DNA of 64,000 bases from Gnetum montanum (lineage: Eukaryota > Plantae > Gnetophyta): contig MNCI01001632.1 of assembly GCA_015680685.1 (NCBI GenBank), forward strand, positions 1-64,000, written 5' to 3'. Position numbers and translations under genes: made by a program. The notes beneath the pieces were generated by a model. It did no database searches. It was not told where the DNA came from and worked only from the letters and a program-made list of their open reading frames with translations. Shown here one piece after another: positions 7,505 to 59,205 of the stretch; position 1 is the first letter of the stretch; each line of letters begins with the position of its first letter.

Positions 7505-7745
7505 ATGATCCCTCTTTGTTGGTGCTTGGAGGATTTACCCAAGAGACACCAATAAATAATACAAAATACCACTACATATTATAACACTATAATGAATACA
7601 AGCTACATGAGAGTTAGGCTATCTAGGTTACCAACATTACTAGTTTAAGGCCATGGCACTAGTTTAAGGTCTTGGTAGGTCATGTTGCTAGTTTAAGGTT
7701 GTAGCAGACCATTGAAAGTAGGATTTCTTGTTAACTATCTATTAG

Positions 7746-11241: not shown

Positions 11242-11939
11242 CTAGGTAAAAGTGAATAAATAATGTTAAAATGTCAAAAAACATATGTAAATCTAATGAA
11301 ATCAAGGCCATTCAAGATCATTAGTGAGATAAGGTCAATTCAAAAATTACAATAGAGGAAAACAAAGATCACATAAGGGTCAAACAAGGGAAACTATAAG
11401 GCTACAAATGGTAAGAAAAGGCCATACTTTTTTCTAGTTTTAGGCATTAGTGGGTCATGATGCTAGTTTAAGGCCTTAGTGAGCCAAGGTCATATGGTGT
11501 TGAACAATGGTAACAAAATGTCAAACTCCACTATTGGATACCATTTAAAGGCCAAACAAAGACAAATAGATTTGTAATAAGGCAAACAATGAACATATAA
11601 GGTTTTATAAAGGCCATAAAAGGTCAACAAGGTTATTAAGGCAACATAAGTCTAAAAACAAGCCAAAACATTACTTAATAATGCAAAAATCAAGAAGAAT
11701 AGGTTATATATGATAAAATATAATTAATATATGAAATAAATGGTTAGGTTTTACTATTATTAAGCCTTATCAAGGCATGTTATAAGGGTAGAGGGCTATA
11801 AGATGAGTTTAGGTGTCAATCAAGGCTATTTTTAGGCTATTTAGACACAAAAATCTAGTGCTTTGAGGCTTCAATTCTACAAGTTTCTGGCTAATTTTGG
11901 GCATGTTTGAAGGATTTTTAAGGGTACTTAAGATCTTCC

Positions 11940-17300: not shown

Positions 17301-18451
17301 AAGAAAAGTAAAGGTGAACATATAGCTTCTAGTGTTTTATGGTTCTAAGTGTTTTATTGCTTTTCTTGGTTGTTCAAATTATTCATATTACTTCTAACCT
17401 TTGGTTATTACTTTGTAGGACCTTCCACCTTAGCTGATGTAACTATACCACTTTTGCATTTGCGTCATGAGTATACCCTCATCCTAAAGTTTGATGACCT
17501 AACATTAGTATAGGAGTGGCTAAAGGGACAAGTGCCTAGATATGTTCAAGAAAACATCTAGCATGCTAGTTTGCTCAATGTATTTATGGGACCTATTCCT
17601 TCCATTCTTACTACAAAGATGTTGTATGTTATCAACTCCTTTGATGAGGAGGGTGGTAGCTTTAGCACCAACATTAGTAGTGTTATAGTGTGCATTGATG
17701 TAGGTGTTAGCCTCTTTCATGATCTGTTTAGTGTCATTGCTGATGGGACCAAGGTTCCCACCAGGACATTGAGGGAATCAAGTCATCACGAGGAAGTTCT
17801 AAAGTGGCTTGGTGCCAGCACGGGCCACTTTGAAATTTTGATGGATAGCTTTATGACTCCTAATGTAAAGGAATCATATCCTTTGTTTTGTTCTTGTGCA
17901 TTCCCCAAAATGCTATCACAAAAGAAGGTAATTGGCCTAGCACAAGGATGGATCTCTAAGAAGGTCTTAATCAATGACATCAAATTTGGCTACTAGGCTT
18001 TGATAGGAAATCGTTAGACTTTGTGTTGACACCTCTAGAATAATCCATATGCACTTTGCATTTTTCATATGTTATCTAAAGAGGTTTGCAAAGATTCTAG
18101 TGGTGTATAGGAATGGATGATGGGTTTCCAAAGGCCTAAGCCAACTTTCTAGGCCTTGGATAAAGCACACTTATCCAATAGTGTAGGCCTAGAACTCACT
18201 AGAGGAAATGGATAAAACATTATCAATCATCACTAAGAATATTAATGTTAGAAAGTACAAGTTTCTTGATAATACTGATGATGATGAGCCACTTTTTTTT
18301 CCTACTAGTGTTTAGGATGTCAAATGATGGTGCATGAAGGTTGAAGGGATAACTAGAGAGAAATTCAAGAGGCCTATGGAGGAGGCACCCCCAACATCAA
18401 ATCAACGTACCCTAAAGAAGCTTAAGTTTAAGCTTAAGCCATCATAGTAGG

Positions 18452-19990
18452 TGTGACGATGGAAAACGTCGATCGTTGGAAATACCAAATAGAGTTCCAT
18501 GTACATAGTTCCAACCCTAGATCTGTGTGAGGGCCATGCTGAAGAAGATGAATTCGAGGTGCCCTGAACGGTCTTGTTGATCAGACAGGGACTTAATCAA
18601 TAAAATTTTGTAATAACCAGGTGGCAAAATGGTGATTTAAATGAGGAAATATGATATCGTTAATCCCAGAGGTAACGAGAGTGATGTAAATGATTCAAAG
18701 AGATTGCAAAAATCTATATAGATAGGATGCAATAAACTAGATTTAAAAAGTGTGCAATCCCAAGATCTGGGATTTAGCTTATGAACAAAATATGTTGGAT
18801 ACAATGATTATAGGCAGACTTCAGTTTATACGAAGCACGTGCCAAGAACAGGAAAGCTATTTAAAGATAAAACAAGCAAAGGTCGATCTACCTTGTTCTA
18901 GCCAATCTGGGCGCAAGGGAGTCAGACCCGAAACAGAATGTCCGCTAACTAACTATTTCTGATCAAAATTCTTGTCAATCATCTTCAATGTTCTTACAAT
19001 TGTCGATCCCCTTTTTGCTTTCTTATCAATCTTTGCCAAACGTTTTTGACAATTGCCAATGAAAGAAAATTGCTCACGGAGAAAATTTTTCCAATCAAGA
19101 TAATTTTTTTTTTTGCCAACCCCTTTTTGATCCTTGTCAACTGGAGTATTTATAAGGTTAGGGTTAGGAAAAAAATGTGGTTTAGATGATGCATGTCCTG
19201 AACCTACAAAATTCCGTTGACTTGATGTGTTTGTGTTTGAAGCTAGCAGCGCTATGCTACATTACACTCTGAAGCGTAATGTGTCATAAACTACTTTTGC
19301 TGGAGCTTTGGCAACAAACTGTTCTATGATTACACTGTAATACGCTAGAGAGTGTATTGTGATGTATGAACTACTGATGCCTGAATTGTGTTATCTCTAT
19401 TGTTACTTGTATTACGTTGTGTCATGCTACATTACGTTGCATAGAGTAATTCAACGTAAGATAGTGAACCTACAAAAAATTGAAGTGTTGTCGCTGTGCT
19501 TCCCTTGTTTTTGTTCAGTATTTCTAGGGTTTATTATGCTACACTACATAATGTAGTGTAATAGGCCCTTAGCCGAAAAAAGAAAACTTGCTGAGATGTG
19601 CGACATGTTGCAGATCTTTGCTTGAGCCTTGAGATTTTACTGAACCATTGAGATCTTCAAATTTTGCAATCTCCGTTGTTGTGACTAGATGGACTGTCTC
19701 CTTGTATTACGCTGTGTTACGCTACATTACAATGCATTGCATAACATGGCATAATCCGTTAAAAGTTAAAATTTTTGAAGCATAGCTAACTTACAAAGTT
19801 GAAGGCTTGCCATTGTGCACCCCTTGTCTTGTTCTATCCTCTGGAGTCTATTATGTTGCACTGCATAGTGTGGCGTAACAAACCCTTAGCCAAAAAGAGA
19901 ACTTGCTAAGCCACAACTTGTCATAAATCCTTGCCTGAGTTGCAAGATTTTGCTGAACTGTTGAGGCCTCGAAATTTGCATGGTGTTTCA
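18452..19990 (-). repeat. 3' LTR of B (1539 bp)
   Basis: Colinear with 36077-37622; differences are almost all transitions. Confidence 0.96.
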
Positions 19991-20005: not shown

Positions 20006-21210
20006 TGATGTTTAGAGGGCTTACCCAAAACATGTTTACAAAGAATATGAAACACTAGAGAGGTAAAAACACCAACAACATCCGTCAGCAACTGCTCAGA
20101 TGTTGCTCTATCAAACCTGGATGTGTGAAGGTAGGAGGAGGAGAATAGGAGGGATCTTAAAGAAGTGAGAGGAGGGAGGTTCGAGGAAGACTCATGCATG
20201 TGAATAGGAAACTTTCGCAAACAAGTTATTAGGCGTCCTTTCATGGGTGTGTTTGCGAGAGGTTACGTTGCTATACTGCATATGAAGGGCTTACATGGAT
20301 GAGTTGTGTTATGCCTGTATGGCCTGGATGAATTTTTTTACATCCATTTTTCCTAGCTTTTCCATTTTTCTTTGAGAGTGCAACTTACATTCCACGAGGC
20401 GAGTTGTGTTATGCCAGTTCATGGATATGATGGTGGGAAAGAATTGATTATATGCTCACATCCTATACAAACAAAGAAGAGGGTAAAGGCAGTTGTAAGG
20501 ATAAGGGAAGGAGGAAGTGAAGTAAGGTATCTGATGGAGGGAAAGGTAGGGTTTGCACTCCCAAGTAGTTAGGCTAGTCTGAGTAGCCACCTCAGAATGC
20601 CATGACACCTCACCTCCTAGTGAATGCATTCTCGATCAATCCCATCGTAGCAAGTAACTTGCAAAACATAATAGAGAACAAAGAGCAAAAGCAATCTTCC
20701 TAATCGCTAGGGAGGCTGTTGAAACAAGTGTCGTCCAAAGTGAAAAGGAGAGTGTAGGCCATAAAAAAGGGACCATAGCAAGAAGCAAGGGTCCCTATGT
20801 TGATGCCATGATTTATGAAGTTATCATCAACAGCCAGATTCATCTTGCTCAAATGATTGGACAAAGAACCAATCAGATGAATTTGCTAAGCTAGAGTCTA
20901 GTGGCAACAATGGGTGGAGGCCATCGAGGCTATGGATGACCATAGTTTCTTTGGGGTTCCAAGTAGTGAAGTTAACCCCAGGAGTTGCAAATACAGAGTG
21001 GCTATCATAGCAACATCTCCGAGGGGTCAGTAGTATGCCTTCCAGCTTATCCGAGGAATCAGTAGGATGCCAGTGGGGTAGAGGCATTGCGTCTATTCCA
21101 ACATCTTACCCATTCCATATGGTAGGGATGTAGTGCAAGAGTGATCATGATTACTTACTTCATGGATTTTCTATTGATGGATTCGAGTTTTGAGTCCTGG
21201 TTGACTGTTA

Positions 21211-21541
21211 TTGCTGGTTTTAGGTCTCAGAAGACCGTGGTCCCGGTTTAAAGTCTGGGTAGACTGAAGCCTGCTAGTTTTACATCATAGTAGACAGTGG
21301 AAGAGCTAGTTTACGGTCCTAGTAGACTATGTTGTGGGTGTCAATTTTACGTCGTGACCCAGGGACAAGTCTGTGCTAGTTTAACATCTTAGTAGACAGA
21401 TGCTTACCTTGCCAGTTTCACGTCATGGTGGACAGTCGAAAACTTTGCCAGTTTAGCGTCGTGGAAGACACATGCAAGAAATGCTAGTTTTACGTTGTAG
21501 CGGATGTGTACAACATTGCTAGTTTTACATCGTAGCAGACA
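21211..21541 (-). repeat. Hairpin-motif array (10 copies, variable spacers) after the INT stop of B
   Basis: + strand consensus GCYAGTTTWA-NGTC-N6-GACN', with 7-13 nt variable spacers. Confidence 0.85.
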
Positions 21542-21573: not shown

Positions 21574-24500
21574 TTAGATGTGGTACCTCTTTGGATACAT
21601 ATGATTCATTGGGTTCAGGTGTTCGTTGTCGTTGATGTCTGCTAGCCTAAATGCTCCATTTCCATATGCGTTGACAACCAGGAAAGGGCCTTCCCAACTC
21701 ATAGAGAATTTTTTCGCTGGTTCATGGATGGCTTTGAGAACCAAGTCTCCTTTCTTGATTGGTCATTGATGCAAGTTGTGATGATGCTTTTGTTTCTACC
21801 TATCTTGATACCTTTCGATGGTGTTGAGCATCTGGATGCGTTTCACCTCTACTGAGTCTAAATCCACGATCTTAGACTCTTTGTGTTGATTCTCACTTAT
21901 AACCATGGAGAGGACCATCCAAAATGAGGGAATCTATAGTTCCAGGGGCAACCCTGCTTCAGATCCGTAGACTAGGCTGTAGGGTGTCCTATCGGTAGCT
22001 GTTCTGCATGTCATATGATAGGCCCATAGCACATAGAGGATTTTTTCATGCCATCATTTTTTGTTGCTGCTGAGCATCTTCCTGAGTAGATTGATAACCA
22101 CCTTGTTTGTTGCTTCTTCTTGACCATTTGCTTGTAGGTAATAGGATGAGGAAAAAGATTACTTGATACCAAGGTTGTTGCAAAAAGATTTGGTTTTAGT
22201 GCTACTAAATTGTGGCCCATTGTTGGTCACAATAGTCATGGGAAGCCCAAACCTGGCTACTATATTTTCCAAGATAAAATAGCAAACCTATTGAGATGTA
22301 ATCTTTTGTAGGAGAATAGCCTCAACCCACTTCATGGAATACTCGGTGGTGGTGATGATGAAGCTATGTCCTGCGGAAGACTTAGGCGTGATAGGACCTA
22401 TGATGTCTAGTCCCCATTGTTCGAATGGCTAAGTGATCTGTGTAGTATGCAATTCAGTTGGTGACACGTGTATTAGATTTGCGTAACGTTGGCATGTGTT
22501 ACATGTCTTAACCTTGGTGAGGAAATCTCATTCCATGTATGGCCAGTAATACCCTAAGCATCTGATTTTAGCGGCCATGGCTTGTGGGGCTATATGTCCC
22601 CCACATAGTGCTTCATCAACTTTACTAACTATTCATTGTGCTTGGTCATTATTAATGTAGGTTAGCAATACTCCATCAAAAGACTGTCTACAGAGAGTAC
22701 TATCTCCAATGATGACATATTGCCGAGCAATCTTGCAGATTGCATCTTTTTGTGTAGGTGTTAGCTCATGCAATGGTTCGCCATGCAAAAAGTAGGCTTT
22801 AATGTTATCGTACCATTCTAGTGTTCCACCCATGCTTAGAGAAGAAATTTGCGCCACTTGAATGACAGGCTCTGTACATTGCATCATTAAAGTGGGCCAA
22901 GTGACAAACAAATGTGGTGGCATATTTAAGGCCAGTGTGGCTAGTGCATCAGCTATAGCATTTTCATTATGCGACACGTGTTGGACATCAGTTTTCATGA
23001 ATTATTTCAGGAGATCTTTAGCCATATCACAATAGGGATGCAAATGCATAGCTTTGCATGCATAGACCCCTATGATTTGATTAATGATGAGCATTGAATT
23101 ACCTTGGATTTCCAGGTGTTGAACATTGAGTTCCCTGGCTATTAACAATCCCCTGAGGAGCCCCTCGTACTCTGCCACATTGTTCGTACAAGGGAATTCT
23201 AGGCGGTAAGCTAATGGATGAACATCCTCAGGGGAATGCGTAATGATAGCGGCAGCAGTGCCACCTTTGGTAGTCGAAGCTCCATCAAAGTATAACATTG
23301 CTTTGAGGCTTGTCAATATAGGGCTTAAACTACATATTTGTTCATTAGGAAACTCAGGCTCTATTGCGGCTTGATTGTTAATCGGTGATGTTGCAAGCTG
23401 GTCGGCTATCACTTGGCCTTTCATGGAAGATTGGCTAACGTAGTGCAAGTCAAATTCTTCTTTCTAGTAGGCTATCCTATTACTTTCATATAAATTTTTT
23501 GTGATGGCCTGTAGAATGTTTTTTTTACAGATTATATTGACCTGGCTACGGAAAAGATAGTTCCTACATTCCTTGAGTGCAAACACCAATGCTAAACAGT
23601 TACGCTCTACTTCATTGTACCATGTTTTGTATGCAAATAGAGCATGACTTAGGTAGTAGATAGGAACTTCTGACCCATCATCCCTTCTTTGGCACAACAA
23701 CACAGCTATAGACACCTCTAAGTTTGCCAAGTATATGTAGAAAGGCTGATCCCTTTGTGAGGAGAAAATCATTTGCAAATGTAATAGCTCTTTCTTCATA
23801 TTGTCAAATGCACATTGGAAGTTCTTGGTCCATTCGAAGTTAACCCCTTTCTTGAGCAAATGTTGCATAGGGTGTAACTTATCTGTTAATCTTGAGATGA
23901 ACCACCTGATAAATTGCAACCTACCCTATAGCCCATGTAGTTCTTTGAGGTTTGTAGGTGGTGTTAGATTAATGATGGATTTAACCTTATCGGGGTCGAC
24001 TCGAATGCCATTCTCTAATACCACAAACCCCAACATGCACCCATTTTTGACTCCTAATACGCACTTTCTTGGGTTGAGCTATAGGTCATTTTTGATACAT
24101 CGTTAAAGGATTATCTCTAGGTCTTTCGAGTGATCTTCTGACTTCTTAGATTTGATAGCAATGTCATCTACGTAGTCATTCAATCCCTCTAAGAGGTAAT
24201 CACTAAAGATGTAAGTCATGACGCATTGATGGGTTGCTCTAGAGTTTTTTAATCCGAAGGGCATCATGGTGTAACAAAAAGTTCCCCAGGGGATCATGAA
24301 AGTCGTAGTCAGTTGGTGTCCTTGCTTGATACAGATTTGATTATAGCCTGAACACCCATCCATAAAGGATAGTAACACGTGGTCGGCTGTTGGATCGATA
24401 AGTTGGTCAATACTCGGTAATGGAAAGTTTTCTTCAATCGTGGCCTTGTTCAGATCGTGGAAGTCTATACAGATGCATATTCCTCCCATTTTCTTAGAGA

Positions 24501-25044
24501 CAACTATGATGTTCGACACCTAATCTGAATAATCAACTGCATGAATGAAACTAGCCTAATATAGCTTAGTGATTTCATCACACACTGCTAACCCGATTTT
24601 GAGCTTAATCTTCTAGGATTTCTGTTTAAATGCTTTCATATGCGATTCTAAAACTATGTTGTGCTATATTAGCCTTGGGTCTAAACCTGGCATATCTTCG
24701 TATGACCATGCGAACACCGTAATGTTATCTTGTAGCACTCGAGATATATCACTCTGCGTTTGTTGGTCAAGGAGAGAACTAACTTTTAGAGTTTTACTTT
24801 CTCCTTTGTGCGTAACCATAGGGACCTCAGTGAGGGAATCCTCAGTCACATCACCAGCTTCCAGGTCTAGGGTTTGGGCCAAATATTCTAGCTAGTCTGG
24901 AAATACTTCCGATGTTGCAATGGTTATACCACAAAGGGAAGCGTCAGTTCCTATCAATGTGTGATTGAGCTATCTAATACTTTCCCCGTATGGGCCTGTT
25001 AAGGCTAGGGGTGCAAGTAAAGCTACATCCATTTGTGAATTGAC
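21574..25044 (-). pseudogene. pol: pol of B (RT-RH-aRH-INT)
   Basis: YVDD at 24163-24174; FPLPSIDQLID; SGYNQI; RH PIYYLSH; aRH YFDGAS...CTNNVAEYEGL; INT FEQWGLDIIGP and EYSMKWVEA; GPY/F-like WEGPF; stop at 21574-21576. Confidence 0.95.
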
Positions 25045-25062
25045 CTGCAAAAATGCCAAAAA
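25045..25062 (-). promoter_or_regulatory. Putative 3' splice acceptor for the pol exon of B
   Basis: The - strand reads TTTTTGGCATTTTTGCAG|GTC AAT TCA CAA ATG, in frame with RT. Equivalent AG|G sites lie at 11242 (A) and 63789 (D). Confidence 0.75.
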
Positions 25063-25622
25063 TGGAGGTTGTTACATTTTTTTTGTTGACCTATTGAAAT
25101 GATAGAAGGTTTTCTTTTTTTAGTGGTACGTGTTAAAGAGCTGCAAATTTAAGATCCTAGCAGACCGTTACCATATGCGTGATTTGTGAGAAAGCAGTAA
25201 GCCAAATTTCCTAGATGTTAGTGTAAGACTTCTATGCACTATAGTAGGGAGTGTAACGTGGCATGTATAACATGTCGAGACAACTAATTTTTAATTTTTT
25301 GCATATCATAGTTAATGTGACTGGATTACGAGACCATGAGCTACATGTTAGTTTAGGGTCTTTTCGGACCGTAATCTATACAATATCTACAAGATTAATG
25401 TTGCGATCTTCATGCTTCATGTCACATTGACATACCTATGTCTCGAGAAAATTCCACATTGGTCAGGCACGCAATAGTTAGTTTCAACCAATTCATTTAT
25501 AAGTCAGTGATTCATCCTCAAAGTAGACTAGAGATATTGCGAATTTGAATTAGGATATAGCAGAAGGAAAGCAAAAGTAAGGCATGAGCAGAAGATTTTG
25601 CAAAGGTTGTTTAGTCATGACC

Positions 25623-28600
25623 ATGGTACCAAAGATCAAAGGGAAACATGTCAAATTGGCAAAGATTAATAAAGTGTAGGAGAGTTTCCAGTGGGTTGAA
25701 ATGCGGTAGGCTACTCCACTCGCTCGGTAAGTGACATTTTATCGTCCTGCATGATTGTTATTTTTGTTGTTATGGTGTCGCAATTGTACCTATTTCAAAG
25801 ATGTGTATTATGGTGGGCATTGATACCTGGTCACACGGGCTAAGCTATCGTAGTTTGTACTATTACCGCTATCGTTGTTTTTGGAGACAGACCTTGCGTA
25901 CTCGCAAGGGTTAGGACGATCTTGGGCAGTATTGTGCAAACACAATGCATAACTGAAGGAGTCCAGGTACTATACCCTTATGTAGTATGAATAGGATTCC
26001 ATCATCTCACCCATAAATGTTGCATGTTACACTGAGATAATAGGTAGTATTACTTTTATCGCCATTTCCAGGGATAGACCTTGTGCGATTGCAAGGGTTT
26101 GGGTGGTTTTGGTAATGCATTTTCAGCATAACCTACAATTTCCTGGGAGTCAAGGTAATGGAAATTCTAGTGTTATGTAATTAATTTTTGTGCCTCTCTC
26201 CCTTTTTTTTTGTTTTTCTCTTACATCATTAGTATGTCTACATTGCTGTTTCTAATAGAATTCTATTTTATTGTAAAGGATTACGCTAAAGCCTATCCTA
26301 ATCATCTTGGACATTGTGGGCGTTCTGTGTTGTTTACATGTCCCCATGGCCAATGTTCCTCCTCCTCATGCTCGTGTAAAGGTGGAGGCAGTTTGGTTCC
26401 GAAGAGGCACACAAGAGTTTCTGTAGTTTTTGTTACATAATTACAGTGTAATTATTTGGTCGCATTTGCCAGCCGAGACAGTCGCCTCCATTCTGGAGAC
26501 GCTACTAGTTGGATCAACATAGAGCATGTTGATGTTTTTGGTGGATGGCTCAATCGAAACCGTGCAGGTACAAGACCATGAATAGAGTGCCAGGGGTTTG
26601 AGACATTTTTCTTGGATCTAGGATATGCCCAGGTTTAATTGTTATCACGCCTACAACACTCTATTCGTGGCTTGTCATCTTATGACCTACTTCCAAAATC
26701 CACCTGGGATTGTGTATTATGCAAGCGGGTAAGTGCTTCCACGGCGTCATAATACACTAACCATTTTTTTGAATTTGTATCTAATGTAAACAATTGTCTA
26801 CATTCTGTGATGTAGTTTTTTCATCAATAATGATGGTCTCCAGGGTGATATAGATACGTTGTCTATGGCCAAAATGGCCATAAAGGAGTTCACCTCTATT
26901 AGCAATGTACGTGCTGGTGTTATGGGATAACTAGAATTGGAAATCCCACATTACCCTAACTACTATATCAAATTTTTCACCAAGTGCAAAAGGCTCAGAT
27001 GGTTGGATAAGGAGTGGACTTTGGATCGTCCTCTCACTATCATGGACATGTGAGAGAAAATCCCACCGTTTCCTTTGCCTTTTAGATGCGGTAAATTATG
27101 CTATGGTGGTTCATTGTACAATCTTACGAGATGGACACAATGTGTAAAATCATTTTATTTTGCTATATTGTCTAAACCCTTGTTTCATGTTTATAGTTAA
27201 GGAATCACAAGAGATCACGGTTATGGCTTCCAGGCATGAAGCGAGCAGCCTTTGTTTCGTTATGGTGACATAAAGAAAATGCAACATTCGCTCAGCCATA
27301 GTGCAGCCCCAGTTGTCCTAACCAATAACCTATGGGAAGCTAGACTAATGCAGCTATTTTTGGTTGTAACCCCCAACGTCACCGTGGGAAAAATGTTGAC
27401 CCTAGTTAACTCCTTCAGCAAAGAAGCCAAGCATCTTTACATGCGCATGCATAACGTGCATGTAAGTTTTGATATTGACGCTTGACTGTTCACTAACTTT
27501 CTTGGTGTTTCCTTTGATGGCCTTCCAGTAGAAGAAAATTCAATGAGGAGTTCTAAGCACCAAAAGGAGATAGAGGAGTGGCTAGGGGTTAACAAGGAAG
27601 TGAAAGGAATCCCTGCTGATAAAATTGAGCTCGAGGTGGCTCATACCATTTATCCCCTCTTCTGAGCCCACGCCTTCCCCAAGTTGCTTTCCCAGGGGAG
27701 AATCTTTACCATAGAGCAGGCATGGATCATGCAGGAGGTTATGGAGAACGGAACGTGGTATAATTGGGTTAGTTACTTCGCCAAAGGCATGCAGGCTGAA
27801 ATGGTCAAGCTTCAGAAGAAGTTTGAGTACCGCTTCAACGTGCATTTTACCTTCTTTTTAGCTTGCTTTCAGCATTTTTTCGAATTCCTAGTGGTTCAGA
27901 GGGATGGAATCTGGGTGCTACAGGATCATAACCAGATTTCCAAATCTTGGATTTCCTAGATTTTCGACACTACTCGATCATAAGATCCCCCCGAAGGCAT
28001 TGGGGATTCGCTTTCACTTACGACTAAGATTTTGGTGGCACCTCGTACACGAGGCCAGGATAGCATGGGTGGAGCGCTCCCTTCTTTCACCGGTAGTGTG
28101 TCGAGGGGGAAATTCCTTGTAGTAAAAATAGTGGATTCGTCAGTCTAGCAGAAAAAGCCTCGTCTAGCCATGGAGTCCGCTAGTTTGACTGACATAGAGA
28201 GAAAGAGGTTGCAAATTAATTTTCACAAGAATGATCCCCCAACTAGTAAGTAAAGAGATGCATAATTAGTTTATATATTTGTTATGTTGCGTACAGATGT
28301 GGCATCACATAGCATTTGTAAGATTTTTGATTAACTATTTTTTTTAGCAGACAAAAGAAAGAATGTAGAGGAGTTGACCCCTAAAACAGGGGAAATAGTC
28401 ATACGATGTGAAGGAGGGGCCCCAATTTTGAAAAAGAAGGCCCCTGTTAATAATGCAGGTGGCACATAGGTTTCTGTGTGTGAAGAAGAGATGGAAGCAG
28501 AGGACGTCGAAGTCCTTTCAGATGAGCTGGAAAAAAGGGAGCAGCTTGTTGCTGGTAAGTTTAACTTTTCCTTAGAGGGTAGCGTCACATTACGACCATT

Positions 28601-30170
28601 GAGGGTTTTTTTGGATTGAGTTTTGCATTATCGTAATGTCTCAATTGTCCTTTATGTCCATCATACTGTGTCTAACTCATTTTTGTTTGCGTAAAAGGTA
28701 CTTCTAACGCTGGCTTCGTGCCCTTGTCAGCGGCACCCACTCAGCATTGGGATGAGACCCCTGATAAATTTGCCTTTATGGAAGGCATTGCAAAGGATAT
28801 GATGGGCCATCTATAGAGAATCGACCCTGAGATTGGTACGTGAGTGTTATAATGTAGGGATTGTTGACATTATGATATTGTATCTTTTTTTATGTCTCAC
28901 TATTATTTTTATGTTACAGGATCTCGCCTCAGATGGGATCACAAAGAGCCCGTTGACTTGGATATTGCCCCTAAACCCTCATCAGAGCTGACCGAAGTGC
29001 CATGCAGCCTTTACGACGAAATGAGTAAATGTGCGTTACGCTCAACCCACTCTTTATGGGAGTGCCAGAACATCAACGAAGCTCTTTGGAAGAGGTTGTA
29101 GAAGGAAGAAAAGGAGAAGATGTTCCTAATCAGTAGGGTTGAGGACCTGGAGTCTCGAAATAAATTTCTACTAGCTTGAGAGACCAATGATGAGAATTGG
29201 TGGACAGTTGTAATTGACTACACTTGCTATTGGACAGTCATCAGAAACAACATACAAGCTAGTCGTGAACTCATTGAGAAATGGATGCAAATGAATCTCC
29301 TAGCCCAGAAGAACCAAGACTGGAAGGATTATAGCGTGATGGTCCAAGAATGGGGCTAGACACAGAAAGATCATAAGCACGTGTATAAGCGAGAATGTGT
29401 TGCCTACTACCAACATTACAAGGATTCTACTATTAAAGCATGGTCCCTTCAACTATTTCTTGATGTCATCGGTGCTTCTAGAGCATACGAAAAGTTTCAA
29501 GAGCAAGTGACAGTAAGTGCTTCCCCAGAGAGGGAAATAACTTTCCTTGGTCGGGAGACCACTGTCTCTTCCTTCTTTTCTAAACTGCCCTGATGGACTC
29601 CTATGGAGAAGGGAAAGGTTAAGGTTGGAACTGATCTAGGAGATGGCGTTTGGTCTAAGCTTACCGAGGACAAGATCATGCAATGCCTGTGGGTTGGTTT
29701 GGAACAGATTCCTTTCGCAGCTAACGCAAGACCATCATAGGTAAGTTGTAGGCCTATTGCATTCTTGTTATGCGTAGTCTCGATGAAAATACTAATGTGT
29801 GCATCATGTAAAACTATAGGATTGGAACAAGGAGGATCCTCATGAGGATGAGCGTAATGGAGATGATGGTCAAGGAGAAGAGAGTCTTCATGAGGAGGAG
29901 CATAACGAAGATGATGGTCCTCACGAAGAGGATCTCCATGAGGAGGCACATAATGAAGATGATGATCCTCATGAAGAGGATATCCATGAGGAGGCATGTA
30001 ATGAAGATGATCAAACTCGCGGTGAGAAATCCCATGAGGAAGAGCCCTGCAGAGAGGACCCTCGTCATGAAGAGACATCCTACAAAGAAGGTCCTTACAA
30101 GGATGATCTTCATGAGGCAGAGGTGGAGTTGGATGACACAGGTGGAAATGATAGCAAAGGGGATGTGTAG
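25623..30170 (+). pseudogene. Antisense 8-exon accessory gene of B, ~1130 codons: FCP1/NIF-like HAD domain, plant-transposon domain, coiled coil, acidic tail
   Basis: Exons 25623-25726, 26279-26728, 26816-27090, 27197-28245, ~28351-28554, 28698-28835, 28920-29740 and 29820-30170. Donors gtaagt (x5), gtaaat and gtacgt; AG acceptors after T-rich tracts; scattered CAG>TAG stops and a few frameshifts. Confidence 0.85.
29830..30120 (+). repeat. ~15/45-bp coding repeat giving an acidic His-rich tail (GDPHEEAHNEDDDPHEEDIHEE...)
   Basis: Repeated catgagga(g/t) units. Confidence 0.85.
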
Positions 30171-30289
30171 CATGGTGATATTAGCCTAAACATCTTGTTG
30201 TAATGAAAAGGAATAAAGAATAGAGTTCTTGGATCAATTTGATTGTAAGAAAAAAAATTGGAAGAAAGTGTATCATTAGAAAGGTTACG

Positions 30290-30702
30290 TGTTTTAGGCC
30301 ACTGCGGGATATTAGTAGTTTAAGGCCATTTTGGGCCAGTCCATTGTAAGTGTAAAAGGATAAAATAAATAAAAATTGAGTTTCTAGTTTTAGGCCATGG
30401 TGGGCCATAAATAGTTTAAGGCCATTTCAGGCCATATCTTCATAAGCGTAAAGGGGTAAATTACATTTGCCAGTTTTAGGCCGTAGCGGGCCGCAACTAG
30501 TTTAAGGCCATTTTGGGCCAAGCCATCGTAAGCGTAAGAAAAAAAATAAAATTGATAGTTTTAGGCCATAGTGTGCCGTAAATAGTTTAAGGCCATTCCG
30601 GGCTAGTCCATTGTAAGCGTAAAAGGATAAAATAAATAAAAACTGAGTTGCCAATTTTAGGCCGTGGCGGGCCATAAATAGTTTAAGGCCATTTCGGGCT
30701 AG
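30290..30702 (-). repeat. Hairpin-motif array after the gag-pro stop of B (paired motifs in ~90-120-bp higher-order units)
   Basis: AGTTTWAGGCC-N6-GGCC repeated ~10 times. Confidence 0.85.
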
Positions 30703-30806
30703 ATCGTCATAAGCATAATAATGATAATGTAAAAAGAAAGAGCGTAAACTATGTAATAATAAAAAACATGGACTGATACAACATGTCACGCTAACATGTT
30801 AATTTG

Positions 30807-33800
30807 CTAGCTCTGTAGTTGTTTCTTGATCATTTTTAGGTTTGGCGACACGTATGGGCAAGGAGGCTTATTATAGAATTCCTCTACGCTACCATCTTCT
30901 CCTTGGAAGGGTAGTTCAGCCCAAGTCAAGCTTTCATTGGCTACTGTGTTAGCCTATTCAACTATTGGGATAGGAGTTTGATCTTTAGAGAATTCAACCT
31001 CTAACCCTTGTTCCATTTCTACATTGTTAACCGCTTAAGGGATCATCTTATCACCATGGATGATCACTTCCCCTCCCACATAGGACAAATGGATCTCTTG
31101 ATGAATGGGTGATGAGACTACTCTTAATTAAGCTAACCAAGACCTCCCTAAGATTAGGTTGAAGTCGGGCATCTCCTCAATGACGATGAACACTGCATTT
31201 GTGGGGAATTGATCCACTACTACAAAGTTGATGTGTACCATTCCCTTAACTTGCACTCTTGGCCCATTAAATGACTTCAAACATGACATTGTCATGGGAT
31301 TAATCTGGTCAATAAAACCCAGTTTGTCCACTATAGGGAATGGAATGACATTGGCAGCGGCCCCGTCATCTATGTGTACTCTCCGGATTTTGTACTGGCT
31401 GACTTGGATAGTGATGAACATGGATGTTGTTGTCACCTGACCCTTTTCTGGATCATCCTTAATGGATTCTTCATGAAATGTCAGTTGGGGAGATCTTAGT
31501 TGTTCAGCAGTGTGAGGAAACATAATCGAATGGATTGCTTCTTCATCTGCTGGCAACTTTTTGTCCACCAGTATGGACGTTAGCATGCGAACCATGACCT
31601 CATGATGCTTTTAGGATGTCATCAACAAGTCATACAGACTCAGCATTATTTTTCTATTTGAGAGCCTGCTTGACTTGTGTAAAAGAGTCAAGGAGATCAT
31701 GCCCATGATCTAGTTGTTTGTTACCCTTCTCTTCTTTCATTTGTCCCAGGAGACGGATCTCTTGGGGTAGAATAGTTTCTGGTTGAGGATTGTATTTTCT
31801 TGGGCAGGGAGAAGGTGTCCGTATTTGCGTAACATTGCCCTTTTTAGAAGAAGGTGGGGCCAAGGGCACCAAGGCAAGGGATGTAGGCCTAGGGAATCCC
31901 AATGTAGGGTGATCCTTGGCTACCTCAGCTATCATGCACCCTTCTCCTTTCCTATTAGGTTGTGATTGGGGCGTTGACTTAGATGGTTGTCCCTACATAA
32001 TAGGAATAGCTGATGGCTTTGGCACCCTGATGACAAAGGGTACCTTAGGTATGGGTGCGGGTTGGGCTACGGCTTTACCAATAGTAGGCTATGGGACGAT
32101 AGTAGGAGATGGGACTCAAAGGACAAAAGGTTGTTGTTGAACCACACCCATTGATGTTGATGGGTTTGTCGTTTGAGATGAGCAAGGAGATACACATAGG
32201 ACAAAGGGATGCTTTGGCTGTGCTTAACCATCGCCTTCCATACCTACCACATTGATATTGTACCCTACATTATTAGCATTTAACGGGTCTTGGTACATGT
32301 GCATGGATTGGTTTTCAGGATGGATCAGGCTATTGCTGTCTAAGATTAGTTTACCTTGATTGATCATGTATTGAATGTCATCTTTCAACACCCAGTAGTA
32401 ATCCATGTCATGACCACACAGTTGGTGATAGTCATAGAAGCGGTCCAGCCTAAAGTTTTTTGGGACTAAGGGTTCATTCGGTAGGGCCAAGGACGGATTC
32501 TTGAGCAACTCACAATGTCATCTATGGCACTTCAAATCCTCCTTGGATACCTTCTTATGTTGGATGTGGCTAGTTCCCAACAATTTCTTTAGAAGTTCTA
32601 AAGGCTTTATAGGTAGGGCCGCGTATTTTGAATGGTCTTTACGCTCAAAATTAGGGTTCGGCTACAAAGGTGCTTCAAGGGTGAAAGGAGTTTCTGGATC
32701 GATGCTGTTTGAGCTAGTTGTGGGCTCAGCAAGCTCCGTAGATATTTTCTTGTTGTTGTTTTTCTTCTTAGCCCCCTCGGCAACCGCTGTTACTGTCATT
32801 GTCGTAGCTTTTCCTTTGTTCTTACCCTTGTTGTGGGAATTCTTTTAGACCACATACGTTGGATCCTTGCTAGCCTCTGCCATGTCTTGGATGCTCTTAG
32901 CCTGAGTGAAGGCTTGGCTGAGGGAGCGAGGAGCGAGGTAATATAACTTAGACTTAATAAAGTCGTTAACTACCCCCTTGAAAACTACCAACAGATGGCC
33001 CTCCACGATGGGTTCATAGATTTTGTTCAAGGTGGTGCTCCACTGCTATATAAACTTTTGAACTGACTTGAGCGGGTCTTGCTTGACTCCCATGAGCTGG
33101 TCCAGCATGACTTCTGGTTTCATGTTGTACTTGAAACAAGTCACGAACTAAGTTAACAGCTCTTCCAAAGTTGAGATGGAAGCACGCAGGAGTGCTCGAT
33201 ACCAATCTAAAGCTTTACCTGTTAGGGACATAGCAAAGACACAGATGATAGTATGTGGCCATTGTTGCAATAACAATGACTCTGACCTAAAAGTAACTAA
33301 ATGGGTGTTGGGATCGCCTTCCCCATTGTATTTTGTAAAATGGGGAAGTGGCATCCCAAGAGGTAATGACAAAATGGACACTGCCAAGCTAATAGGATCT
33401 TCATGGTAAAAATCCATGACTTGTACTATGTCAGAACCAGCATCCTTGAGGTGTTTAACTTCCTCAGTAAGGGTCTAGATAAGCTAGAAGGATTTATCTA
33501 GACCTGTAGATGAAGAGGTCATTTGTGGAACAGCAGGAGGAGCCACGCTGGGTGGCAGAATAGGGGCGGCAACTTGGCCGATGGGTGATGCTATCGAAAT
33601 TATCCCTGTAGGAGGTGCTACTTGTGGCATCCACCACCTGGTAGGTGGCATGGATGGGGCGATTTCCATTGGCTGTGCCATTGGATATGTTGTTTGCATT
33701 GCTAGGGGCATAGACAATGACCCTGTAGTAGGGTTTAGTGCCTACTGAACTTCGTTTTAATGATGGAGGAGATGGGACATCTATGTAGGATGCACAACGA

Positions 33801-34230
33801 GAGACATGTTTGGAGCCCACCATGCTGTAGTGGGGGGCCCTATCATGTGAGTCAGGATGAATGTAGGTGTTGTATGTAACTACAAAGTAGGTATTGCGTG
33901 TAGATACGATGACATGGGCGTAGGTGTATGGTGAGATAGATTAGCTAACTACACTTGCTAAGGAATGATTTGTAATGGGACACCACCTGAGAGGGTAGTT
34001 GGAGAGAGAAAATGTAGCTGGGACGAGTGCGGTACTTGGTTAGTATTAGACAATGTCAAGGACATGGTGACCATGAACAACAAATTTATGCGAGACGTTG
34101 TGGAGGGAAGGGCCACAACCAAATCAGCATGACTACTTCCCTCAGAGTGGGAATCTAGATCAACCTGCCCATGATGAAGCGCTTCATCATGGAACAACTC
34201 CTCTCATTATTCTGTTGATGTCCTAGCCAT
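30807..34230 (-). pseudogene. gag: gag-pro of B
   Basis: Gag PHFTKYNGEGDPNTHL...FAMSLTGKALDWY; Tat-type Zn motif YDYHQLCGHDMDYYWVLK; protease VHIDDGAAANVIP...FNLILGRSWL. The start and end positions are approximate. Confidence 0.9.
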
Positions 34231-36038: not shown

Positions 36039-36067
36039 GATCAGAGGTTCAGGCCCTCCTTCTAGCG
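36039..36067 (-). promoter_or_regulatory. Primer-binding site of B, tRNA-Asn type, extended
   Basis: The + strand gatcagaggttcaggccctccttctagcg resembles the 3' part of plant tRNA-Asn(GTT) as recalled; it lies 9 nt from the LTR. Confidence 0.8.
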
Positions 36068-36076
36068 TAGGAAAAT

Positions 36077-37622
36077 TGTAACAATGGAAAATGTTGGTCA
36101 CTGGAAATACCGAGCAGAGTTCCATGTACACAGTTCCAACCCTGGATCCGTGCGAGGGCTGTGCTGAAGAAGACAAATCCGAGGTGCACTGAATGGTCTT
36201 TTTGATTAGACAGGGACTTACTTAATCAGTAAAATTTTATAATAACTAGGTGGCAAAATGATGATTTAAATGAGGAAATATGATATCCTTAATCCCAGAG
36301 GTAACGAGAGCGATGTAAACGATTCAAAGATATTGCAAAAATCTATATAGATAGGATGCAATAAACTGAATTTAAAAAGCGTGCAATCCTGAGATCTAGG
36401 ATTTAGCTTATAAAAGAAATATGTTGGATACAATGATTACAGGTGGAATTTGGTTTAAATGAAGTGCATGCTAAGAACAGGAAAGCTATTTAAAGATAAA
36501 ACAAGCAAAGGTCGATTTACCTTATTCTAGCCAATCTGTGCGCAAGGGAGTCACACCCGAAGTAGAATGTCTGCTAAGTAGCTATTTCTGATCAAAATTC
36601 TTGTTAATCACCTTCGATGTTCTTACGATTATCGATCCCCTTTTTTCTTTCTTATAAATCTTTGCCAAAAGTTGTCGACAATTGCCAATGAAAGAAAATT
36701 GCTCACGGAGAAAATTTTGCCAATCGAGAGAAATTTTAAATTTTTTGCCAACCCCCTTTTGATCCTTGTTAACTGGAGTATTTATAAGGTTAGGGTTAGG
36801 AGAAAAATTTTGTTTAGATGACATGTGTCCTGAAACTACAAAATGTCGTTGACTTCATGTGTTTGTGTTTGAAGCTTGCGGCACTACACTGCATTACGCT
36901 CTGAAGCGTAATTTGTCGTAATCTACTTTTGCTAGAGCTTTGGCAACAAACTATTCTATGGTTACACTGTAATACGCTAAAGAGCGTATTGTGACATATG
37001 AACTGTTGATCCCTAAATTCTGTTATCTTTGTTGTTTCTTGTATTACGTTGTGTCATGCTACATTACGTTGCATAGAGTAATTCAACATAAGATAATGAA
37101 CCTACAAAAAATTAAAGTGTTGTCATCATGCTTCCCTTGTAACTTTTCAGTCTTTCTGGGGTTTATTATGCTACACTGCATAATGTAGCGTAATAGGCCC
37201 TTAGCTAAAAAAGGAAAACTTGCTGAGATGTGCAACATGTTGTAGATCTTTGCTTGAGCCTTGAGATTTTTCTAAACCATTGAGGTCTTTAAATTTTGCA
37301 ATCTTCGTTGTTGCGAATAGATGGACTATCTCCTTGTATTATGCTATGTTACGCAACATTACGCTACGTTGCGTAACACGGCAAAATACGCTAAAAGTTA
37401 AAATTTTCGAAACATAGCTAACTTGCAAAGTTGAAGGCTTTCCATTGCGCACCCCTTGTCTTGTTCTATCCTTCAGAGTCTATTACGTTGCACTGCATAG
37501 TGTGGTGTAATAGACCCTTAGCTAAAAAGAGAACTTGCTAAGCCACGACTTGTCACAAATCCTTGCCTGAGTCGCAAGATTTTGCTAAATCGTTGAGGCC
37601 TCAGAATTTGCACAGTGTTTCA
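36077..37622 (-). repeat. 5' LTR of B (1546 bp)
   Basis: Colinear with 18452-19990. Confidence 0.96.
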
Positions 37623-38914: not shown

Positions 38915-39748
38915 TGATGAGTGGCGAGGTACCCCCTACATCCAACCATACGAATATGAGTGTGTATGCATGATCCGATTGAACTCTGTGGATGCGCTAA
39001 TCATGAGTTTTAAGATAGTTATTGTGCTTCTTTATTCATTTTCTTCCCACATTAGACTAGTGGAGGCTTTGTCACGTATGGTTTAGTCTAAAGTGAGGTG
39101 TATGATATAATGTTTTAACGTTACTCCTACTATGGAATGATAATAAAGGGTTGATTAACTAAAGGTATGAAATAAATCCTACATTTAACCTAAGGTGATG
39201 AGTATCCAAACCTGATTGTCCATATGCACCTTGGGCTTCACATAGTTGCTGCTGGGATTACCAAACACTAATTGCTACTGGGTTACTAGACAATATGCTT
39301 ATGTGTTTGCAATTGGTCATACTCATTTTGCTTAATGACAAGGAACATAAATAACATTAATTGGAAATAGTAATAAATAAATACATTGAAATTTTAATAT
39401 AAGAAAATCACAAATGCAAAGTGGATGCTGCAATGATGTAAATGATCTCAATCTTTATTATCGAACATGTAATGTGCCCAAGTACATTGCATGTGAATAA
39501 GGACATTGTGCAACCATAAACATCACACTGCAGGCATACACTAGAATTGAAATTGAAAAACTTCTAACTAACTTTATCTATCTTCTATTTCTACCTATCT
39601 ATCTATGTATCTCCCCCCTATAACACCATGCACCCCATGTGATATTTATAGGTGAGAATGGTAGAAACAACATTGGATATCTGACATCGCTTATTGACCC
39701 TGATATCGAAGCCCCAATATTGCTTCTAATGTGGATGATGACTCATCA
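38915..39748 (-). repeat. 3' LTR of C
   Basis: Colinear with 46225-47064. Confidence 0.93.
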
Positions 39749-46205: not shown

Positions 46206-46224
46206 TCCCTAGCAATGGTGCCAA
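46206..46224 (-). promoter_or_regulatory. PBS of C (tRNA-Asp type)
   Basis: TTGGCACCATTGCTAGGGA directly after the 5' LTR. Confidence 0.85.
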
Positions 46225-47064: not shown

Positions 47065-47693
47065 ACCTTCTACTTGAACTTATATAGAAAGATTTGGCAT
47101 TCTTTTTGACATTGATCTTAGGAATGTTGACTAGGTTAACATGATAGAGTCCCAGATCCTCCATTGTTTGGAGGAAGGCCTTTCCCATCTATCCCCAAAA
47201 GTGATGGAGCTGAACTCTCCATAGGTTTGATATATTTTGTGTTTTAGTCTTTATTTTAAGTCATGATTTTGGGTATGGGTTACTAACTTGCTATATGTTG
47301 TTGTATTTTAGGCCTCAAGAGACATTGGAGGGCCTAGTGGTGAGGGTGGAAATGACCCACCACTTCCTCATCAAAAGGCTACTTAGCAGCCTCCTTCAAT
47401 TTAGCTTGTTGGCTATTTGTTTTTATTTTCATGTTCATAGCTATGATTAGCCAAAACTATGTTATTGATGGTTATTCTTTGGAATCATTGCTACTCATTG
47501 TGGTTATGGCTATATATGTTATGGAAATTTAATTTTAAATTTAACTATTTGATTTTATTTCTTAGTTATATGCATCTATAATGATAAATGCTATAAATGG
47601 CTATATTGATGTTTTTGGGTTATAAAATCAAATGGCTAATCGATGTGATAATAGGCTAAGAAAAGAAAGATATAATAATAAAAGGAATTTTTG

Positions 47694-48120
47694 TTGGTTT
47701 TAGGCCATCATGGGCATAGGTTATATTGTGCGATTATGGATACATTGCCAGTTTAAGACCGTGGTAGGCCATAATGCTAGTTTAAGGTCTTAGTGGACCA
47801 TAGTACCAGTTTAATGTCTTAGTAGACAACAATGTTAGTTTAATGTCATAGTAGACCGTAGTGCCTATTTAATGTCTTAGTGGATGAAAATGCCAATTTA
47901 AGGTCATAATAGACTGTAGTGCTAGTTTTAGGCCTTATTGAGCTAGAATGCTAGTTTAAGATTATAGCGGACCATAGTGCCAGTTTTAGGCCTTAGCAGA
48001 CTAGAATGCTACTTTAAGGTCATAGTAGACTATAGTGCTAGTTTAACATCTTAGTAGATGAGAATGCTAGTTTAAGGTCATAGTAGACCATAGTGCCTGT
48101 TTAATATCTTAGTAGACAAG
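47694..48120 (-). repeat. Hairpin-motif tandem array (~14 copies, 29-bp unit) after the gag-pro stop of A
   Basis: tgctagtttaaggtcatagtagaccatag and variants. Confidence 0.9.
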
Positions 48121-56470: not shown

Positions 56471-59205
56471 TTTTGGTTTAGATGTTGATTATTTTGATTC
56501 ATAATTATCTTTTTAGTGACTATGCAATAAATCAAGTTGGTAGTGATATTGATACTTATATAGTCAATTAAGTCAATGAATATTATTATCTTTGCAATGA
56601 CTGTGCAGCTAGTTAGGTCAATAGTAAGCTAAATACTTATGTAGTAAATTTAGTCAATAAATGTCATTAATTGAAATTTTAATTCTATTTAATTTTAGAA
56701 AGTGGTGGTGGGGTTGATGCTAACTTTTGATTATTTTTGAGTTTACTGCTATTATCATTAATTATTCCTTTTTACATTTGTTTATATTTGTTTAGTTGAC
56801 ATTTGGTTTGCAACTATTTTTATGCATGACTATTCAACTATCTCATACTTTTAACCAAACTCATAAGGTAGTTGTTTATTAGTATATTTACCCTACTTAA
56901 TCTTAGGAATGATTCCCTTGGTTTTGTGTATGTTTAAGATGATTATGTTAGTTTAGAAGAGAATGACTGAAAAGACAATCTTAATGATTAATTCATGCTT
57001 TTAAATGTTGATTTAAGAATGGATTTAAATTTAAATTTAATTTTATGCTATAATGTTCAATTCGATTGTGATATTGGGATGTTTGAGAAGTTCATGATAA
57101 ATCCCTAGGATGCTTTTCAATTTATAATGTTCATGCTATAACATTAACAAATCCTTGTTGGGGGGTTTGAGAAGTTGCATTATTGCATGGTTCTAAGAGC
57201 TCTTAAATGCCAAAAAATGCTAAAATATTCAAATGCCAAAGGATTTGAACCTATTCATGTTATAGGAGCTTGGTTTACATAGGGTTTTGATCATAATTTT
57301 TTTTGCAACTTATGCTTAATTGGTGCTACAAATTCTGGCTATGTGCAACTGTGGTGGGTTTCCAAATCAAGGGAGGCTATTATATGGGGTAAGTGTTATA
57401 CCCTCATGGAATCAAATCCATTTCATTTGCTAAAAATAGTAAATGGAAATTTGACCCATGCTAGCCCCTCCAATAGCAATGTTGATGTGCAGGATCCTCA
57501 CTGAAGTTAGTGCTATGTTGAGATCTTTTCCATGTGGTATCAACATTGGGGGGATAAAGTATCAATGCTGAGGGGGATGGTGTATCAATTCTAGGAGGTA
57601 AGGATTATACCCCTCACGTTGCACATGGATGATGTCACACACCTCCACACTAAGCATAGATGCTACTACACTCCTCCCCACTAAGGATAGATGAGTTACA
57701 ATCTCATGTAGGTATCTCTAGCATAGAAGATGCTATACACCCAATAAAACACATCAAAATGCCAATTTTGGCATCCCAAAAGGCATTTTTAACCTCCCTT
57801 CCCTCGACAATCTTAAATATAGACATTATGTAACTTTTTTCATGTGGGGGATGAGGGTTTCACCACTTAGGAGGCATTTTTAAGCTCCAAGAGCATAAAT
57901 TACTTAATATTGCACCTTATGGATTACAATTTTCACATTTACAATGATGTTTGACTAAGGTTTCATGCAATGGGATTACAAGTTTACAACATGCAAATTT
58001 GGTGGTGTTTCAGTGGATCCTCTTTATTGGTGTCTAGAGGATTATGTTGAGAGGCATTGACAAAGAGTACAAAACACATTGTAGGTTCACCATCGATGTT
58101 CCCTCTTCACTCTTCATTCAGTCATGTTGAATCATGTCGAAGAGTGCTTTTGATGATGGAAAAATGATATAATGAGATGAAGGTAATGTGATCATAGGAA
58201 AATGATCATAAGAACTAAAAATGCATTCCATAGTTAACATCATGACTATGACACTAACATGTTGGTCAATCAATGATTTTGGCACTTCATGTTTTGAAGC
58301 GTGGTTCACTTAGTAGATGTGTTTGATGAATCATCACCTCACTCCAAGGTTTATTTGACTACTAGGCTTACCCCTTTGCATGTTTGAATCCATAGGTTTG
58401 TTCTTTCATTTTCTTTGGTCATCTAGCTTCTTGGTAGTTTGCTTTCCATATTTTTGGGATCAAACATTCATTGGGTTTCTTTGCTAAAGCTAATTCTAAT
58501 ATGGTTTTCCTTACTAAATTACGTTTGTTACTTCTATTAATATTAATGGATTTCCCATCAAATAAGATGTGTTACACTCAATGGACTTAATGGTTTTCCC
58601 ATTGAATAAGATGTGCTACACTCAATGAACTTAATGATGGAGCATGACAAAGGAATTTCAAAAGGCCATAGTGCATGAATGTCATAGATAGTTTAACATT
58701 TCTATTCAAGGTAAGAAAGGCTATAACAAGGTTATGAGATTGGGTTTAAGGAGATGATAGCTAAAATGGGAATGGGATAAGCACTCTTGGCATAGCAGGA
58801 CAAACTCACTGGACCTTATGCTTTGAGGTTACATAGTGACTTGCTACCATGATGAGTGGTACCTTGATAATGAACCCGAACTACATCTTACAAGCATAAC
58901 TCCAAGAGGACAAGGAAACCAAGTAAATAAAGCATGTTGTCATGTTACAATTCATAAGGCCACATAGAATGATGAATGAAGACAAATGACCCAAATCACC
59001 ATGGTTTCCAGTTTGAGGCCATGGTAGGCCATGATGCCATTTTGAGACCCTAGTAGGTCATAGTGATAGCTAAAGATCTTAAAAAATCATGGTTTCATGA
59101 GTTTTAGGCCTTGGAAATTCATCTTGCCAATTTAAGGCCTTAGTAAGCTATTTATTTTGATTGACAAGTTATCGATGTTCATTGTTGACTATTGGTTCTA
59201 GCAAG

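Follow-up and report, generated by a model that had tools for sequence, protein, structure and literature searches.

Candidate coremin-like RNA units at the ORF boundaries of an Ogre-like retrotransposon in Gnetum montanum

Introduction

Coremin (xrRNA-C), known from RNA3 of BNYVV, is an Xrn1-blocking viral RNA with a first hairpin of 4 bp and a C-G closing pair, a 6-nt loop with a pyrimidine at position 1 (Y1) and an adenine at position 5 (A5), and a UUAAACU-type spacer, and it lies just past a stop codon or between ORFs, in some viruses in tandem copies (PMC6546385, PMC10520033). In viral resistance assays loop G2 was required, and loss of the tail base C21 weakened the resistance of BNYVV threefold (PMC6546385, PMC10520033). 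The RNA protected by coremin in BNYVV acts as a silencing suppressor (PMC5086608, in part), and the structure of coremin was unsolved in the 2023 papers (PMC10520033; PMC10321173, in part). A further class, xrRNA-WCC, has a stem, an A-rich linker and a pseudoknot in which loop and tail form a canonical helix that shows covariation, and its loop is of 4 nt, with G required first and last and a G-C pair between the last loop base and C18 (PMC10321173, in part). PMC12397905 (in part) concerns a different xrRNA class.

Among plant retrotransposons, an aRH domain between RH and INT marks the Ogre and Retand lineages (PMC6317226, in part). Ogre elements typically have a non-coding stretch that separates gag-PR from RT and is an intron (PMC6317226, in part). 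Tandem repeats are common in Tat elements and specific to families, and replication errors have been proposed as their origin (PMC7004042, PMC11963269, both in part); a survey of 2025 calls the origin and function of the Tat-clade repeats unknown (PMC11963269, in part).

Here, we describe a stretch of 64,000 nt of Gnetum montanum DNA (assembly GCA_015680685.1, contig MNCI01001632.1, positions 1 to 64,000; the window) in which short RNA units with a stem, loop and spacer like those of coremin are arrayed within an Ogre-like element. By their sequence these units fit hexaloop coremin and are candidate members of this class.

Results

A decayed Ogre-like element carries the motif arrays

The arrays sit in a full-length but decayed Ogre-like Ty3/gypsy element on the minus strand (element B; Table 1) with a 5-bp target duplication (37623-37627 and 18447-18451) and a polypurine tract at about 20005-19991. 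The primer-binding-site-like stretch is one that we take to resemble the 3' end of tRNA-Asn, and the label gag for the decayed first coding region is likewise our assumption from a likeness of motifs in its translation. The same region has a weak Asp_protease match in Pfam, below the cut-off, and 60% DNA identity to element E. Pieces of the long pol frame match the Pfam families RVT_1, RT_RNaseH and RVT_3, and the gene order is gag-protease, a 5.8-kb interval and RT-RH-aRH-INT. Similar to the Ogre lineage of Tat Ty3/gypsy elements, aRH lies between RH and INT, gag-PR is set apart from RT-RH-INT by a non-coding interval, tandem repeats follow pol and the target duplication has 5 bp (PMC6317226, PMC7004042, PMC11963269, all in part). 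In contrast to Ogre, however, the PR-RT interval of 5.8 kb is far longer than the mean of 274 bp given for that lineage (in part of the same sources) and holds antisense ORF-like stretches, and the named relatives of the polyprotein, angiosperm polyproteins with rve, are only 35-37% identical.

Like element B, element A has an acceptor-like site (at 11242). A Pfam scan of the antisense stretches in the PR-RT interval found no family, and their protein atlas scores, all <0.9, are leads only; the ORFs scanned gave no Pfam match to the plant mobile domain, the extra ORF present in 57% of Ogre elements. A protein search with an RH fragment among longer proteins returned no relative, and viral contigs contained no relative of the pol protein. 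The family is high-copy, with 8591, 9121 and 8334 contigs matching a 601-nt stretch in three DNA runs from three organisms.

Several other repeats lie in the window. Element A has 20-mer arrays in its 3' region (6588-7095) and element B 10/73-mer arrays in its 5' region (34314-34803); in addition there are a 48-mer repeat that encodes an acidic stretch (29832-30040) and an exact 67-bp duplication (51160-51294). Direct repeats of ~810 bp and 84% identity (38910-39720 and 46220-47022) are possibly the LTRs of another element inserted beside cluster E, and two near-perfect inverted repeats that each touch an N (12619-13219, 256 nt, 99%; 49196-50187, 458 nt, 98%) are likely assembly artefacts.

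Table 1. Features of element B and location of the candidate coremin-like units (window coordinates; the last row refers to a metagenome contig)
Feature	Position	Strand	Remarks
5' LTR, element B	36077..37622	-	TG...CA; 88% identical to 3' LTR over 1546 nt
3' LTR, element B	18452..19990	-	
Primer-binding-site-like stretch	36055..36073	-	Placed by its position just inside the 5' LTR
Gag-protease region	30850..33940	-	Decayed; ends approximate
RT-RH-aRH-INT frame	21574..25032	-	Single frame with internal stops; INT stop 21576-21574
Candidate 3' splice acceptor	25044..25053	-	U-rich tract, CAG; 12 nt before RT-frame ATG
Decayed antisense ORF-like stretches	26935..30189	+	PR-RT interval; end in acidic 48-bp repeat
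Array 3' of INT stop, element B	21182..21541	-	10 alignable coremin-like units and one broken; first unit 32 nt 3' of INT stop
Two single units 5' of RT, element B	25142..25370	-	
Array 3' of gag-PR, element B	30286..30700	-	Classic and Watson-Crick pseudoknot-type units in alternation
Three units, element A	7638..7710	-	35 nt 3' of INT stop
Two units 5' of RT frame, element A	11432..11485	-	
29-bp tandem array, element E	47692..48118	-	13 units and one, 3' of protease region
Three units, element D	59006..59149	-	Start 56 nt 3' of INT stop
Six units in LTR-like stretch	L003:2279-2581		GC-rich metagenome family

The units mark ORF boundaries

A 24-nt profile gave 42 matches at a score of at least 12 on the plus strand and none on the minus strand, spread over seven clusters, while 30 Markov shuffles gave a mean of 0.63 and a maximum of 2 matches on both strands, a contrast that is inflated because the profile was seeded on the window copies themselves. 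Read in element sense, the seven clusters, which a fuzzy search also picks out, lie on the minus strand. As reported in the preliminary description, there is a motif array after the INT stop of element B (25-nt spans ending at 21541, 21506, 21470, 21434, 21398, 21328, 21296, 21265, 21236 and 21206; a unit near 21340-21361 has a truncated loop), and we found the similar clusters that it had placed after INT in elements A and D. This is not the sole site, however, since further copies follow gag-PR and precede RT, and the units therefore mark ORF boundaries and not the 3' UTR alone. These copies in the PR-RT interval, like the loop-tail pseudoknot described below, were absent from that description, and its consensus as literally written matches the window only twice (47776 and 48066) and never inside 21211-21541 because the copies are decayed. 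At the fourth INT end (53141; 52821-53143) there is no motif copy, which leaves one of the four without an array, although 84% identity links the region downstream of it to the corresponding one of element A.

Between clusters, the motif is 55-71% identical, similar to pol DNA (58-62% between element B and the others), while its 10 flanking bases are at 22-53%. An Rfam search of the arrays returned no family and one weak, unrelated match (E 0.6).

Both helices of the unit covary

In element sense, a stem of 4 bp closes a loop of 6 nt, and UWAAACURG comes next; an A-rich linker joins the hairpin to a tail whose bases are complementary to loop positions 2-5. This predicted second helix would make the unit an H-type pseudoknot. 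Judged by covariation, it is loop positions 3-5 that pair with the tail in the Watson-Crick subtype, and in the classic subtype loop and spacer retain the bases known from publications. Over 44 aligned copies, stem and pseudoknot together have 78.1% of cells paired compared with 68.6% after shuffling (0/500) and 13-37% in slid-alignment controls. Taken separately, 84.7% of the cells are paired in the stem, of which all previously named variants occur, and 71.6% in the loop-tail helix, where 4/4 pairs show two-sided change. The covariation claimed earlier for the stem is borne out by shuffling within clusters (p ~1e-4), which also supports the loop-tail helix (p ~0.002), with few independent covariation events in the window because the copies within a cluster are related. 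The loop2-tail22 pair is present in only 11/36 Watson-Crick-type window copies. G-U oppositions are no more frequent than A-C ones (16 against 18 in the stem; also 15/26) and give no strand signal in the window, so that the worry about CpG decay voiced in the preliminary description is fair for single copies. For nine copies, the mean predicted pair probability of the hairpin was 0.35 on the element-sense strand against 0.06 on the opposite one.

Among variants in related contigs (40 of 168 rows examined and 24 classed, with 3 rows of the broken unit left out), 18 concern paired positions; 13 of these lead to a Watson-Crick pair, 3 to G-U and 2 to an unpaired state, and none breaks a pair. Judged by these contigs, much of the damage to the units is apparently decay. 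Natural covariation supports a loop-tail pseudoknot in the coremin structure.

The arrays might also be a neutral tandem repeat in the hypervariable region of Tat/Ogre elements that arose once, from a captured viral motif or by chance, and was then multiplied by errors in strand transfer. We regard this as very unlikely, given that the unit persists across families with ~60% identity in pol, whose spacers differ, that both helices covary within clusters, that two subtypes alternate in one array and that 42/42 matches have the same orientation; what speaks for it is that such family-specific repeats with a proposed origin in replication errors are common in Tat elements (PMC7004042, PMC11963269, both in part), that cluster E is a plain 29-bp tandem and that one INT end is without an array. 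The earlier view of a structured RNA, under selection and not a neutral satellite, is upheld by the stem pairing that survives within clusters and by stems that, left free in search patterns, turned out perfectly paired in unrelated genomes (see below). The unit does not explain all Tat repeats, since it is absent by eye from nine Ogre-derived satellite monomers of Lathyrus (PMC7004042, in part).

Window copies follow some coremin rules and depart from others

We scored ten published rules for hairpin and spacer (PMC6546385, PMC10520033), with C21 and the second hairpin standing outside those ten. All ten are found together in 4/44 copies, two of which have loops tested as resistant, CGAAAA and CGAAAU. 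CGAAAA, tested as Xrn1-resistant (PMC10520033), is the loop of the unit at 25346-25370, and the classic units of the array 3' of gag-PR have the loops CGAAAU, CGGAAU, UGAAAU and CAAAAU. The loop is not freely variable as had been thought, with Y1 in 43/44 copies, A5 in 41/44 and a last base other than C in 37/44. The first hairpin is within the 3-4 bp of the rule, closed by C-G or U-A in 35/44 copies, and the exact AAACU spacer is present in 32/44; in the spacer core AAC is kept in 37/44, U19 in 38/44 and A20 in 27/44, and most of the others have a G20 paired to the loop.

Other features often depart from the rules. Loop G2 is present in 14/44 window copies, and for seven intact B copies that do not have it the related genomic copies mostly carry G there; in viral Watson-Crick-type matches, G2 occurs in 22/53 among the matches listed. 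Tail C21 is found in 1/44 window copies and, among the viral matches listed, in 63/227. A predicted hairpin starts at most 6 nt past the tail in 24/44 copies (raw count), often a weak one and usually the next unit, and for three copies at 30409-30700 that follow all ten rules a hairpin lies 3 nt downstream. Compared with coremin, the window units differ in their host, a plant LTR retrotransposon, in that a single element has three sites with clusters of 2-14 copies, in the Watson-Crick loop-tail helix and G instead of C21 of most units, and in that the next unit often replaces the dedicated second hairpin. The stem, the A-rich linker and the covarying Watson-Crick loop-tail helix are shared with xrRNA-WCC; the loops, in contrast, are of 6 nt instead of 4, nearly always start with a pyrimidine and rarely end in G. 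A version of the BNYVV tetraloop motif with three Watson-Crick pairs showed no resistance, and the look-alike pseudoknot of BWYV does not stall Xrn1 (PMC10321173, in part), for which reasons the resistance of the Watson-Crick hexaloop subtype is putative.

The -1 frameshift pseudoknots of luteovirids (BWYV, PLRV) are of similar size and share the H-type topology and the A-rich linker (PMC10321173, in part). Such knots lie inside an ORF, 3' of an in-frame slippery site, whereas the window units lie 32-56 nt past INT stops or in non-coding DNA and not inside ORFs. A frameshift signal is disfavoured by this position beyond stop codons, where no elongating ribosome meets the units, and a branch point or splice acceptor by the 13 tandem copies and the copies after INT. 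Two further candidates fare no better: the loop is too short for a preQ1 riboswitch, to which there was also no Rfam match, and a VANDAL-like DNA-binding site for anti-silencing explains neither the loop-tail covariation nor the presence of the unit in RdRp viruses.

The same unit occurs in RNA viruses and in an unrelated element

Scans of viral contigs with loop and tail left free found at least 122 and at least 120 stretches, with 227 distinct matches among those listed. Among these, Y1 is present in 212/227 and G2 in 155/227, and 55 of the 156 listed matches with long flanks lie 0-15 nt past the stop of a long ORF (raw count). The 160 distinct viral loop/tail pairs among the listed matches have a Watson-Crick loop4-tail20 pair in 55 cases with 27 expected (0/5000) and a Watson-Crick loop3-tail21 pair in 69 with 40 expected (0/5000). 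When loop position 4 is a pyrimidine, the loop4-tail20 pair is formed in 50/53 of the viral matches listed and 31/36 window units; when it is a purine, tail position 20 is an A in 92/107 of the viral matches listed and 7/8 window units. By these bases the viral matches split into a classic and a Watson-Crick subtype, both of which occur in the window.

A covariance model built from 79 viral matches selected for closeness to a stop found 29 window matches at E<=10, and the top 16 (E<1) were all known copies on the minus strand; this test is not fully independent because the spacer, loop A5 and stems of the window copies had partly guided the choice of search patterns. The 77 ORFs upstream of the training matches comprise 33 with RNA-virus families, 9 with other families and 35 with none. 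Patterns for a single unit that put no constraint on the lower stem matched 13 viral loci. In 6 of these, which come from 3 distinct viruses, the stems are perfect, loop and tail form a helix of 5 bp, a second hairpin is present and the unit lies ~10 nt past the stop of a long ORF; the other 7 have imperfect stems and lie within ORFs. RdRp was confirmed in 2 of these 3 viruses. No match to the tandem pattern was found in viral contigs.

Viral contigs L013, L016, L017, L023, L081 and L270, several of them with RdRp, have a Watson-Crick hexa- or heptaloop coremin just past a stop, and some units of this set are nearly identical to window units. A hexaloop coremin-like unit is also seen in DNA-virus-like contigs of >20 kb (L024-L103), where 19/23 of the matches listed have a loop that starts with YG (hand count), three contigs have two copies and some of the ORFs upstream encode portal, head or tail proteins of phages.

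In metagenomes, the tandem pattern with its stems left free matched eight loci. Five of them (L002, L003, L004, L007 and L008) are one GC-rich element family unrelated to the window element. Its six units begin 18 nt past the stop of a long ORF, which has a protease-like motif, and lie beside a polypurine tract and TG; they have the same orientation, perfectly paired stems and loops of 6-8 nt. In L002 the upstream ORF is a different one that ends in the same residues. From these sequences we infer that the family may be LTR retroelements; a Pfam scan gave no match, atlas scores were <0.9, no second LTR was seen, and the L003 ORF had no significant match to the window protease. A bacterial-looking contig (L005:1583-1644) has two perfect units 14 nt past a stop and between convergent ORFs, with a different but perfectly paired stem and an equally perfect loop-tail helix, which could either have arisen by chance or act as a barrier to a bacterial 5'-3' nuclease. 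The remaining two of the eight loci (L001 and L006) are chance matches, as are two tandem-pattern matches in prokaryote genomes, of which the stems are unpaired.

This distribution weakens the main reading of the preliminary description, a multivalent hairpin array to which Gag or an accessory protein would bind in packaging or export. A large number of short identical hairpins would suit multivalency and the element has accessory ORF-like stretches, but the unit occurs both in RdRp viruses and in an unrelated element, which do not share proteins of this kind, and neither the intron-like interval nor the region after INT is a usual site of packaging signals. With no result that points to a protein partner and with a match to coremin instead, we consider this reading quite improbable.

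RNA reads come from related copies at low level

Four RNA runs gave 1147, 401, 568 and 199 reads on the stretch, mostly <90% alike and of unknown strand chemistry, which represent related copies at a low level; a fifth run had 0 reads on the array. In one run, a strongly one-sided pile of reads lies at 28816-29316, inside the PR-RT interval (25045-30850). The reads of the four runs contain no PR-RT splice joint, and no pile-up of read ends was seen at the array borders in libraries of types that are ill-suited to show ends.

These data bear on a nuclear variant, in which the units would block XRN2/XRN3 and thereby stop torpedo termination that follows cryptic cleavage in a 19-kb transcript, or stabilise an excised PR-RT intron. 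Plants do have nuclear XRN2 and XRN3 (PMC8892269, in part), the intron-like interval has copies at either end, and antisense ORFs converge on the arrays. Neither splicing nor intron RNA is seen in the RNA reads, however, and the unit has the same stop-proximal position in RdRp viruses, which points to decay that is linked to translation; a nuclear block thus seems very unlikely.

Discussion

Based on the match of sequence, loop rules, spacer and position to the Xrn1-resistant coremin RNA, we think it likely that the units act as an array of roadblocks for 5'-3' exoribonucleases. In the cytoplasm, XRN4 attacks RNA that has been decapped and degrades it in the wake of the last ribosome (PMC8892269, in part). 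After decapping or cleavage of the element RNA, such a nuclease would follow the last ribosome past the stop codon and stall at the first intact unit, for which the hairpin of the next unit may serve as the required second hairpin, while the tandem copies would be back-up blocks. The products would be stable uncapped 3' RNAs that start after gag-PR, just before RT and after INT. Speculatively, the element might benefit if these RNAs blunt silencing, as BNYVV ncRNA3 does, or if they keep 3' templates for reverse transcription. Nuclease resistance could also come at a cost, because in Arabidopsis XRN4-resistant fragments of EVD fed RDR6 silencing, with EVD levels left unchanged by xrn4 (PMC8892269, in part).

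The same fold would also stall scanning ribosomes, as coremin does in reticulocyte and wheat-germ extracts (PMC10520033). The units could then be roadblocks to 40S subunits that scan past the gag-PR or INT stop, so that translation of RT would require spliced RNA and the 3' regions would be kept free of ribosomes. The presence of units past each stop, and a second time ahead of the RT ATG within the intron-like interval, agrees with such a function, but 3' of INT there is no sense ORF that would need insulation, ribosomes are unlikely to re-initiate across 5.8 kb even if unblocked, and most of the described viral cases are nuclease blocks. We therefore see the ribosome as an unlikely target and favour the nuclease roadblock.

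In titles and the beginnings of abstracts, subscription journals being outside the coverage, we found no report of coremin or of xrRNA, Xrn1 or XRN4 in retrotransposons. The Xrn1-resistant RNAs that we found described come only from viruses, and a plant LTR retrotransposon would, by the sequence evidence, be a new kind of host for a coremin-like unit. A more far-reaching proposal, which we put forward tentatively and would not yet bet on, is that LTR retrotransposons use programmed exoribonuclease resistance like RNA viruses: coremin arrays after each ORF would turn the decay of full-length RNA into stable subgenomic RNAs, among them possibly an RT-INT message that lacks a cap and a non-coding RNA that counters silencing; the unit would have been gained more than once, in the plant Ogre-like family and in the unrelated gag-protease element; and the Watson-Crick hexaloop would be an undescribed natural subtype shared with RNA viruses. 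If the units resist XRN4, a high-copy family of plant retrotransposons would control the decay of its own RNA with a viral trick, and at least some of the Tat/Ogre repeats would be functional arrays.
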